Shown here: piece by piece, positions 8,812 to 9,645 of the stretch
Layout of the letters: every line of letters begins with the position of its first letter
How positions within the stretch are numbered: the first letter of the stretch is position 1
Sequence record: NC_134263.1
Strand: one strand, 5' to 3'
From: Escherichia phage T5_ev219
DNA length: 64,000 nt
Notes under the pieces: generated by a model
The model's input: the letters and a program-made list of their open reading frames with translations, nothing else
Database searches by the model: none
What the model was told of the DNA's origin: nothing
Made by a program: the position numbers and the translations under genes

Positions 8812-9313
8812 TTTAAGTATTTTTAAGAACTCTCGTAAAAACTCTTAAAAATACAGACGATACCGGGAGAGTCATAAGTCTCACTCATTAAGTATTTCAA
8901 GACAAAATACAGTAACGTCTATTATTTTCCAGTTTAAGTCAGGGTGACTTAGTGGTTATGTCCTGCGGTATATTGAGGACTCGGTTAGGCTTGGGGTCAT
9001 GACTTCCCGCCTTTTGCTGCTACTCAACAGGAGTTATCGCGAATTACCTGTGCTATTGTGCACCATTAGTGACATCTCTCATGTCAGCATTTCCCACTTT
9101 GTGGATAGCTTGAAAAACTACTCCGATATGGAGAAAGAACTTCACTATCCTAGAATACCTTCTAAAGTTCTTCTTTAGCCTGGACATAGTTAAATCGTAA
9201 TAAAACTATTCAGCAGACTGGTTGGTTAGTCTGGAACCAACTACCGCGTGGTTTAGGCAGTGCGCAACTAACCTCGGAAGCTTTTACGTTAAAAGCATCA
9301 GTTATCCAGTTCT

Positions 9314-9385
9314 TACCGACCGTAGGATTCGAACCTACATCTTCCACCAGTTACGGCTTGGTAATACCAATTATACTAGGACGGC
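9314..9385 (-). tRNA. tRNA, anticodon undetermined (possible CGT or 9-nt anticodon loop)
   Basis: Acceptor GCCGTCC/GGTCGGT (one mismatch), T-arm GTAGG-TTCGAAT-CCTAC, no encoded CCA; anticodon arm ambiguous. Confidence 0.45.
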
Positions 9386-9608
9386 AGTGTTACTACATAA
9401 GTGATTTCCACACCCCACTATTTATAAATTAGAGAAGAGTTTAGGGGAGAGGTTTCAGACGCCCCATTTTACACGTTCTAGCCACTAACCGGGATTGCCG
9501 CCCCCTGTGTACTAGTTTTCCAACTAACCCACCGACTCTATTCAATGCGCTCCGGTTGGGATTCTGCACTCAGCGTAATCGGCTCGCTGTTCTCTAATTT
9601 ATGAATAT

Positions 9609-9637
9609 ATTATACAGAATTTATAGGCATTTAGCAA
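9609..9637 (-). promoter_or_regulatory. sigma70-type early promoter (drives tRNAs 9385/8811 and SPFH gene)
   Basis: ATTATA 9609-9614, TAGCAA 9632-9637, 17-bp spacer. Confidence 0.6.
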
Positions 9638-9645
9638 ATAAATTT

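Follow-up and report, generated by a model that had tools for sequence, protein, structure and literature searches.

RNAX of T5-like phages: a large multi-domain RNA with a tRNA-like tip, and a candidate analogue of the GOLLD and ROOL RNAs

What does a phage encode in some 800 nt that lie between an early promoter and a tRNA gene and hold no convincing open reading frame (ORF)? The question arises at positions 8812-9602 of a 64,000-nucleotide DNA from Escherichia phage T5_ev219 (sequence record NC_134263.1; the whole of this DNA is called the window below). An earlier reading of these letters without database searches, hereafter the sequence-only reading, suggested that non-canonical tRNAs, tRNA fragments or small RNAs might be made there. 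Comparison with relatives does not bear out fragments or small RNAs: it indicates that the stretch is one ~790-nt multi-domain RNA, most helices of which are backed by compensatory changes, and which is annotated as RNAX in phage T5. We propose that RNAX could be a large, structured, stable and self-associating phage RNA of the GOLLD/ROOL kind, a proposal for and against which we see the chances as evenly balanced.

The RefSeq record of T5 annotates positions 40848-41566, from the promoter to the base preceding tRNA-Arg, as misc_RNA rnaX (T5s08), a "stable RNA with unknown functions". The GenBank records of BF23, DT57C and DT571/2 likewise label the homologous stretch misc_RNA RNAX, and none of the four gives a structure, boundary evidence or a function. 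The RNA of the window is 91-99% identical in nucleotide sequence to T5 40848-41566. In both, a YqeY-like gene (T5.081) with promoter P16-17 lies on one side and tRNA-Arg(UCU) with an SPFH gene (T5.080) on the other; judged by this orthology, the two are the same gene. The copies differ in that domain 0 of the window has 150 nt inside its closing helix that are missing from T5 and DT57C, and in that T5 carries an 82-nt duplication near the 3' end that is absent from the window. This insertion (locus L003, ~10849-11050, compared with window 8812-8950) repeats the AGUCACCUUGAC hairpin and the UAAACUGGAA motif.

Over 8700-9700 the window shares 99.5% identity with Salmonella phage VSe12 and has matches in 442 phage records; the phage is a T5-like Tequintavirus of the family Demerecviridae, with its genes here on the minus strand. 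The RNAX region is present in 514-528 phage records, with hosts among Salmonella, Escherichia, Klebsiella, Shigella, Citrobacter, Yersinia, Erwinia, Serratia and Providencia; a search of 5,426 complete E. coli genomes gave no match. Apart from a weak tRNA hit, nothing in Rfam matches it, even at an expect value (E) of 10 or less. The existence of RNAX was thus already known from annotation; the novelty seems to lie in its architecture, in a conserved family for which Rfam has no model, in the tRNA as exchangeable tip of a conserved stalk, in loops that change while staying palindromic, and in the analogy with GOLLD and ROOL.

About 18 lineages were compared (Tequintavirus, Epseptimavirus, Sugarlandvirus and phages KEY, phiR2-01 and Slocum). 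The sequences came from T5, DT57C, several Tequintavirus and Epseptimavirus phages, the Klebsiella Sugarlandvirus phages IME260 and JIPh_Kp127, Erwinia phage KEY, Yersinia phage phiR2-01, Serratia phage Slocum and IMG/VR contigs. Among relatives the YqeY-like gene and tRNA-Arg are 686 to 1526 nt apart, and the region between them is a mosaic whose modules are present, absent or replaced according to lineage. Four or five domains, each with its own closing long-range helix, can be delineated:

8812-9602, minus strand: whole non-coding RNA, homolog of T5 rnaX (T5s08), ~791 nt from the putative start to the base before tRNA-Arg
9424-9602, minus strand: domain 0, closed by AUAAAUUAGAGA (9602-9591) and UCUCUAAUUUAU (9435-9424)
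9247-9419, minus strand: domain 1 (core; alignment A1), a stalk with a tRNA-like tip and hairpins H2 and H3
9121-9173, minus strand: module B2, an outer helix GAAGAACUU/AAGUUCUUU around UAGAA-GGUA-UUCUA, then CUCC-AUAUC-GGAG
8913-9103, minus strand: domain 2 (alignment A2 and RNAalifold), closed by GUGG (9097-9094) and CCAC (8955-8952)
8853-8922, minus strand: domain 3, closed by AUAGACG (8922-8916) and CGUCUGU (8859-8853)

Compensatory changes affect more than 25 pairs in six or more helices. In the core (A1, 19 distinct sequences), 94.3% of the cells are paired, against 34-42% in slid controls, and 15 pairs show double-sided changes, against 0-3 in the controls; none of 500 shuffles reaches the observed value. 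In domain 2 (A2, 10 sequences), the corresponding figures are 93.8% against 32-48%, and 10 double-changed pairs against 1-3. For the helices of domains 0 and 3, column covariation was replaced by explicit strand tables because MAFFT misplaces compensatory indels. Read on the minus strand, the tested helices contain 79 G.U cells and 8 A.C cells; therefore, the structure belongs to the minus-strand RNA and not to the DNA or to an antisense transcript. Both ends of the RNA are buried, the 5' end in a 12-bp helix and the 3' end in a 16-bp hairpin abutting tRNA-Arg. The sequence-only reading had seen no credible ORF here, and rightly so: on either strand from 8812 to ~9602 no ORF exceeds 60 aa, and none in the RNAX stretch is conserved across the compared lineages, as a protein-coding gene would be. 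The 60-aa ORF of the plus strand is an antisense read-through of the tRNA-like element and nothing more. That a structured RNA is encoded, as had been suspected from inverted repeats, is borne out by covariation in the core and in domain 2.

In the core, conservation is higher on the two sides of the "tRNA" than in its body, and these flanks pair with each other. The elements of domain 1 are the following:

9415-9418 with 9248-9251, minus strand: closing helix, GUGG (9418-9415) with CCAC (9251-9248); covariant UAGG/CCUA in the same columns in Slocum
9297-9406, minus strand: stalk P1, 5' strand 9406-9392 and 3' strand 9310-9297, 12 bp in three 4-bp blocks
9313-9386, minus strand: tRNA-like domain, "Ser(ACT)" for ARAGORN; Rfam tRNA model 37.9 bits (gathering score 29) with the anticodon arm unaligned
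9280-9296, minus strand: hairpin H2, GCUUUU-AACGU-AAAAGC, with 2 covarying pairs
9256-9273, minus strand: hairpin H3, GGU(U)AGU-UGCGC-ACUGCC, read from the alignments

The three blocks of stalk P1 are set apart by a C.C and a G.G mismatch, both kept everywhere, and an invariant internal loop, AACACU opposite AAGA, separates the stalk from the acceptor stem. All 12 pairs are 100% paired, 5 of them with double-sided changes. Every block is paired in each of the 13 haplotypes, including Slocum, where the middle block is CGCU/AGCG in place of UUAU/AUAA. RNAalifold independently recovers the stalk, the T arm and hairpin H2, and the core as a whole is 72-86% identical across genera. H2 occurs as GCUUC/GAAGC, GCUUAU/AUAAGC, GGUUC/GAACC or GAUUA/UAAUC. 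H3 occurs as GGCAG/CUGCC or, in phiR2-01, GACAG/CUGUC, with a long insert in other lineages, and is followed by a conserved single-stranded UAAACCACG. For the invariant GUGGGGUG, CCCCA was considered as distal partner and rejected, not being conserved; the closing partner is CCAC, which Slocum supports.

The tip has a 7-bp acceptor stem, a D arm and a T arm, GGUUCGAAUCC, which has the GTTCRANYC loop of tRNAs and a covarying stem. The acceptor stem is 85.7% paired, and its unusual U5.U68 mismatch is retained in relatives as distant as KEY and Slocum. The anticodon stem, CAAGC/GGUGG, makes only 3 of 5 pairs in the window. Elsewhere this arm is a plausible Pro(UGG) in KEY, an "SeC(UCA)" in 26175IV and a 7-bp stem with a GCGAA loop in phiR2-01; in Sugarlandvirus it has a long insertion, and in KFSSM a single hairpin stands in place of the D and anticodon arms. 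ARAGORN calls the element Ser(ACT), Ser(CGA), SeC(TCA), Pro(TGG) or nothing, missing it in 21 of 27 relatives. In Kp150049, L026 and L027, a 40-nt non-tRNA insert replaces the whole tRNA-like body, and the stalk and the first three acceptor pairs are retained. Because the anticodon arm is unconserved, the body replaceable and the element mostly missed by ARAGORN, comparison indicates an exchangeable tip derived from a tRNA rather than a tRNA that decodes. With the canonical tRNAs of the T5 island it shares the acceptor stem, the D arm, the T arm GGUUCGAAUCC and the Rfam tRNA match; unlike them, it has a degenerate anticodon arm, a shifting identity, the U5.U68 mismatch and no encoded CCA, and both its ends are locked in the 12-bp stalk. 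The two tRNAs announced by the sequence-only reading were both found, with the reservations that tRNA-Arg (8737-8811) lies just outside the start then given and that 9313-9386 is non-canonical. The check proposed at the time, with ARAGORN and Rfam, returned these two and, in this stretch, no other family even at E<=10. The idea of non-canonical tRNAs holds for one element and not for a collection of extra tRNAs.

Domain 2 carries the loops on which the idea of self-association depends. Besides the closing helix, RNAalifold gives P2.1, a long-range helix UGGUGC/GCAGCA, P2.2, P2.3, P2.4 and a terminal hairpin, AAGUCA/UGACUU. A covariance model of the domain (R1) scores 215 bits in the window, 78-136 bits in KEY, 26175IV, L027 and KFSSM, 37.7 in phiR2-01 and 31 in S126, with weak matches in IME260 (21 bits) and in metagenomic contig L187 (19 bits); it detects no second copy in the 64-kb window. 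The two hairpins with self-complementary loops, and the palindromes found in the first of them, are:

9027-9051, minus strand: hairpin P2.2 (ACAGG/CCUGU), 15-nt loop with palindrome UCGCGA (9042-9037), then AUAAC
8988-9011, minus strand: hairpin P2.3, loop AGUCAUGA with palindrome UCAUGA, or GUCAUGAC including the closing pair (9003-8996)
P2.2 palindrome UCGCGA: window and most Tequintavirus
P2.2 palindrome CGCGCG: T5
P2.2 palindrome CUCGAG: 26175IV and L027
P2.2 palindrome CCGCGG: KFSSM; IME260/Kp127
P2.2 palindrome GUGCGCAC: phiR2-01 and S126
P2.2 palindrome CUGCAG: Slocum
P2.2 palindrome CGCG (4 nt only): KEY, Trudi and L029

Across lineages, the P2.2 loop measures 13-17 nt and always contains a GC-rich palindrome, usually with AUAAC next to it. 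CGCGCG, CUCGAG, CCGCGG and CUGCAG stand in the same register before AUAAC, and the sole difference between CUCGAG and CUGCAG is a swap of the central CG to GC. When seven P2.2 loops (Slocum's not among them) were shuffled, a palindrome at least as long arose with a frequency of 0.007-0.56 per loop, and all seven held one of that length at once in 0 of 20000 shuffles, a figure that is indicative only, since the lineages are related. In P2.3 it is the loop that is invariant in all lineages, on a stem with 4 covarying pairs.

The P2.3 loop also recurs on unrelated stems in two metagenomic contigs, L186 and L187. The first (IMGVR_UViG_3300017766_004476), a T5-sized contig, has the hairpin CUUUCGG-AGUCAUGA-CCGAAAG at 14210-14256 beside a cluster of 12 tRNAs. 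The second (IMGVR_UViG_3300002220_000838) is AT-rich and not visibly T5-like; at 12400-13730, on its minus strand, a strong promoter is followed by ~1.3 kb of ORF-poor sequence upstream of tRNA-Pro. This stretch holds GGUGGGAAAUCACUUAU (13 nt identical to the core of the window), a GUGG-AGUCAUGA-CCAC hairpin, AACCACG and several T-arm-like motifs, and may be a distant relative of RNAX. In Slocum (locus L197, 2270-2330), the GUCAUGAC palindrome sits in the loop of a GCCACC/GGUGGC hairpin with a U-run after it; therefore, the motif looks there like part of an intrinsic terminator. Two other ways to distant loci were discarded. The SPFH protein, used as a tblastn marker for distant T5-like phages, is also common in T4-like phages, and a metagenome scan with the 14-base pattern ATGTNNNAACACTGCCG returned 120 loci, all of them chance matches because none has a T-loop nearby.

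The remaining elements lie on either side of the core and at the two ends of the RNA:

9571-9589, minus strand: 5' hairpin CAGCG-AGCCGAUUA-CGCUG, recovered by RNAalifold
9221-9241, minus strand, within 9214-9241: inverted repeat GUUGGUU-CCAGACU-AACCAAC (9241-9221), lineage-specific
8817-8854, minus strand: 3'-terminal AU-rich hairpin of ~16 bp, of the GUAUUUUUAAGAG.../...CUCUUAAAAAUAC type (RNAalifold on alignment A4)

The closing helix of domain 0 consists of 12 bp, begins with the first transcribed bases and persists in every lineage; KEY, Trudi and phiR2-01 show indels and changes there that compensate one another. The loop of the 5' hairpin may tentatively be paired with AGUCGGU (9537-9531) in a pseudoknot. 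It is suggested by a single compensatory change in KEY, where GCUGACU faces AAUCAGU, together with a U.G pair that has become U-A in IME260; the assignment is tentative because a local hairpin, CAUUGA/UCGGUG, competes. In KFSSM (locus L181), an ORF for an HNH endonuclease at 1017-1499 comes directly after the same promoter, exactly at the place of domain 0; therefore, the RNA gene is a target or landing site of a mobile endonuclease gene.

Between the core and B2, the inverted repeat that the sequence-only reading had singled out does exist, at 9221-9241 and not at 9232-9252, an error of 11 nt. An alternative hairpin, CAGACU/AGUCUG (9233-9214), overlaps it. On the minus strand, 9214-9241 reads GUUGGUU, CCAGACU, AACCAAC, CAGUCUG, in the order A-B-A'-B', so that two mutually exclusive hairpins of 6-7 bp follow without a spacer; this could be a conformational switch or merely an alternative fold. 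DT57C retains the repeat with a G.U pair on the minus strand, other lineages have an unrelated hairpin, and the arrangement is unconserved beyond Tequintavirus and some Epseptimavirus. The inner hairpin of B2 is compensated to UAGGC/GCCUA in IME260, Kp127 and 26175IV. The helix of domain 3 occurs as CUGACGG/CCGUCGG, CUGACUG/CAGUCGG (KEY) and CUGACAG/CUGUCGG (phiR2-01), with an A.C mismatch in four lineages. The 3' hairpin, which ends 5 nt short of tRNA-Arg, is kept in all lineages; in some of them it precedes an inserted ORF rather than a tRNA.

How such an RNA would be made can be read from its neighbours:

9646-10089, minus strand: YqeY-like gene
9609-9637, minus strand: strong sigma-70 early promoter, TTGCTA, 17-nt spacer, TATAAT, 10 of 12 consensus positions
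8737-8811, minus strand: tRNA-Arg(UCU) (ARAGORN; Rfam 49.3 bits)
7755-8702, minus strand: SPFH/"lipoprotein" gene
7700-7731, minus strand: intrinsic terminator after the SPFH gene, 13-bp stem with 8 G-C pairs, U-run

The promoter, already placed at 9609-9637 by the sequence-only reading, corresponds to "promoter P 16-17" of the T5 record, and related promoter sequences also precede neighbouring genes; transcription would start at ~9602. No terminator was found between this promoter and 7731-7700, where the T5 record has, at the homologous place, an "efficient bidirectional rho-independent terminator" and where the primary transcript likely ends. With a promoter upstream and a terminator after the SPFH gene, the stretch is the first part of a unit made of promoter, RNA, tRNA-Arg and SPFH gene, in agreement with the earlier statement that it is transcribed. 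If RNase P cuts immediately before tRNA-Arg, the 3' end of RNAX would fall at 8811/8812.

Two families of phage RNA offer a comparison. Phages and prophages carry GOLLD and ROOL, "often near tRNA islands"; tRNAs are sometimes found inside the GOLLD linker, and copies of either RNA assemble through kissing loops into homo-oligomeric cages (Kretsch et al., 2025, PMC12286853). In that work, symmetric kissing loops were recognized by palindrome switching, as in OLE L9.3 and GOLLD L21a (GGCC, GAUC, AGCU; GC and CG) (PMC12286853). RNAX shares with GOLLD (RF01998) and ROOL (RF03087) a phage origin, a place at the edge of a tRNA island, a size of 0.6-0.8 kb, a multi-domain organization, pseudoknot candidates, a variable region able to hold a tRNA and loops varying among palindromes. 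Several features expected of an RNA of this kind, namely a phage location next to a tRNA island, more than 500 nt, many covarying helices and changing palindromic loops, are found in RNAX. The families differ in hosts, which are Enterobacterales with lytic T5-like phages for RNAX and Lactobacillales, Mycobacterium, marine or rumen sources for GOLLD and ROOL; moreover, domain content varies far more among RNAX relatives.

Other RNAs resemble RNAX in single features. The dimerization initiation site of HIV-1 is a hairpin whose loop holds six palindromic, GC-rich nucleotides, GCGCGC or GUGCAC; these vary with lineage and remain self-complementary. P2.2 likewise has a GC-rich palindromic loop that stays self-complementary while varying; the HIV-1 site belongs to a retroviral genome and has a 9-nt loop, whereas P2.2 has a 13-17-nt loop with an AUAAC tail in a phage non-coding RNA. 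The Y RNA YrlA and transfer-messenger RNA (tmRNA) also hold a tRNA-like module inside a larger RNA, and neither Rfam nor ARAGORN gives a tmRNA or Y RNA match for RNAX. YrlA has a capped acceptor, and its Ro-binding stem continues from the anticodon side; the RNAX stalk, in contrast, extends the acceptor side.

From loop-sequence evolution and the analogy with GOLLD and ROOL, we propose the following course of events. Host RNA polymerase would make a primary transcript over RNAX, tRNA-Arg and the SPFH messenger RNA (mRNA) up to the terminator at 7731-7700. Cleavage by RNase P at the 5' end of tRNA-Arg would release the ~791-nt RNA, which sequestered ends would render stable. The UCGCGA and UCAUGA loops of domain 2 would then make symmetric kissing contacts between RNA copies, giving dimers or larger assemblies. 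RNAX could thus function as a particle of the GOLLD/ROOL type, consisting of RNA alone or of RNA with protein and produced early in infection beside the tRNA island, with the tRNA-like tip as an exchangeable peripheral module and not the functional core. The stronger version, in which RNAX would be a third, unrecognized family of such ornate phage RNAs, homo-oligomeric through two symmetric kissing loops and displaying or enclosing its tRNA-like module, is a possibility that we regard as doubtful.

Several observations weigh against the proposal of a stable, self-associating RNA of the GOLLD/ROOL kind. The Rfam models of GOLLD and ROOL do not match RNAX (E<=1 over 12 kb, E<=10 over 871 nt), so that the link is at most an analogy and not homology, and RNAX is a member of neither family. 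"Stable RNA" is the wording of GenBank annotations only, and a literature search for RNAX and T5 stable RNAs retrieved no paper describing RNAX. Folding energy is too weak to decide (z of -1.8 on the minus strand and -1.0 on the plus strand); it is covariation, not folding energy, that places the structure beyond chance, and the shuffle statistics overstate independence because the lineages are related. The variable palindrome of P2.2 is no longer than the 4 nt of CGCG in KEY, Trudi and L029. The RNA is also modular. In T5 and DT57C, the interior of domain 0 (window 9590-9441) is lost and its helix alone remains, as a hairpin; an HNH homing endonuclease ORF replaces domain 0 in KFSSM and L024 (IMGVR_UViG_2974662754); at the position of B2, other lineages have a different module and some have both. 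The domain-2 covariance model finds no match in Slocum, which shares the core and individual hairpins and not domain 2 as a unit. With domain 0 deleted or replaced, B2 swapped and domain 2 not found as a unit in Slocum, a single obligatory architecture is therefore doubtful.

Among other explanations, the one that survives best is that the stretch is a structured spacer or processing scaffold, a long leader of the tRNA-Arg/SPFH operon whose released RNA has no function. Its hairpins and tRNA-like element would be entry sites for RNases P, III and E and stabilizers of ends, setting the amounts of tRNA-Arg and SPFH mRNA. The single transcription unit, uninterrupted by a terminator before 7731-7700, fits this, as do the long AU-rich hairpin abutting the tRNA, the gain and loss of modules between lineages, and the tRNA-like element itself, which keeps the parts recognized by RNase P (acceptor and T arms) while its anticodon arm decays. 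However, a leader would hardly equal or surpass the flanking protein genes in conservation of sequence and structure between genera (72-86% identity for the core, against 59% protein identity for the YqeY-like neighbour in L029), nor need it have invariant loops and mismatches (G.G, C.C, AACACU/AAGA, UCAUGA). Changes that preserve palindromes in loops serve no processing role, the RNA is kept in lineages with a different downstream gene, and three loci have lost the tRNA-like body yet kept the stalk. We therefore regard a functionless leader as unlikely, while granting it real weight.

In a second explanation, the tip is a tRNA mimic, decoy or sponge that titrates a tRNA-recognizing host factor, the rest of the RNA being its scaffold. 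A tRNA-targeting defence nuclease, RNase P, the CCA-adding enzyme or EF-Tu would be candidates, possibly together with the YqeY-like protein encoded just upstream. The locus does lie in a T5-like tRNA and anti-defence island, where phage tRNAs are known to counter the PtuAB effector of retron Ec78 and PARIS (PMC11464382). The acceptor and T arms are conserved with covariation, U5.U68 is kept over the span from the window to KEY and Slocum, and a YqeY/GatB-like gene is adjacent in most lineages. Against a decoy, the anticodon loop, target of most known tRNA-directed defence nucleases, is unconserved; the acceptor ends are buried in the stalk and not free; the body is replaced in Kp150049, L026 and L027, and in KFSSM the D and anticodon arms have become one hairpin; and Sugarlandvirus has no adjacent YqeY gene. 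These points make a decoy quite improbable in our view. The retron anti-defence factor Rad was also considered for this locus and discarded, being a TOPRIM protein gene elsewhere in the island.

A third explanation, which we disfavour and consider very improbable, is that of decaying remnants, in which degenerate tRNAs and scars of mobile elements or homing endonucleases would look conserved only through close kinship. One element is indeed a degenerate tRNA, several "tRNA-like" RNAs are annotated in the region by T5, homing endonuclease genes insert at the locus, and large indels separate the lineages. Remnants would not, however, show compensation in over 25 pairs of at least six helices, or strand-specific G.U pairs; conservation reaches Sugarlandvirus and the phages of Erwinia, Yersinia and Serratia, and the best-conserved parts are non-tRNA motifs. 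Equally disfavoured, and just as improbable, is a DNA-level element in which palindromes and repeats would be protein sites, replication or recombination signals or T5 nick sites: palindromes of 6-8 bp are classic sites of dimeric DNA-binding proteins, so that those of RNAX could be protein-binding sites in DNA, which is also a point against kissing loops, and T5 DNA has site-specific nicks at PuGCGC (T5 record note), but the G.U to A.C ratio of 79 to 8 indicates a one-strand RNA, the palindromes lie in loops of covarying hairpins, self-complementarity is conserved and the palindrome sequence is not, and PuGCGC nicks were rejected because the T5 record annotates none within rnaX and the sequence context does not fit.

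Should RNAX prove to be a functional analogue of GOLLD and ROOL, the interest would lie in its hosts. Few bacterial or phage RNAs without a known function are as large as GOLLD and ROOL; the cages of these two were solved only recently, and they have no convenient genetic system. RNAX belongs to T5, a tractable coliphage, and to about 500 sequenced relatives; if the proposal is true, an assembly function would be open to E. coli phage genetics, and the purpose of giant phage RNAs near tRNA islands would become testable with T5 and E. coli K-12.

A more immediate use concerns annotation. No Rfam model is available to annotate RNAX in several hundred T5-like phages of therapeutic or biocontrol interest, and the RNA often carries spurious "hypothetical proteins", "tRNA-Sec", "tRNA-Ser" or "tRNA-OTHER" features. 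Public records are inconsistent: several place "hypothetical protein" coding sequences on RNAX (for example TrudiGerster bas27_0080-0082, on the opposite strand, and AKFV33 orf078), the tip is labelled tRNA-Sec, tRNA-Ser, tRNA-Pro, tRNA-Val, tRNA-OTHER or pseudo, and the YqeY-like neighbour appears variously as "tRNA amidotransferase" or "recombination-related exonuclease".

Finally, two other places in the window deserve mention. The sequence-only reading had pointed to a similar ORF-free stretch at 900-1290. It aligns at 93.8% to a T5 segment annotated as RNAIV ("stable RNA") and RNA2 ("tRNA-like stable RNA"). Mechanical ORFs of 50-72 aa are present in it, but the T5 record lists none. At 915-1160 on the minus strand, an acceptor-like UUCUAG/CUAGAA pair and a T arm, ACAGGUUCGAAUCCUGU, surround a long insert, and the Rfam tRNA model does not detect this element. 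Conversely, at 5037-5111 on the minus strand, the Rfam model finds a tRNA (40.3 bits) that ARAGORN misses; it adjoins tRNA-Ser(GCU) and, by its position, corresponds to T5 tRNA-Ile2(CAU).

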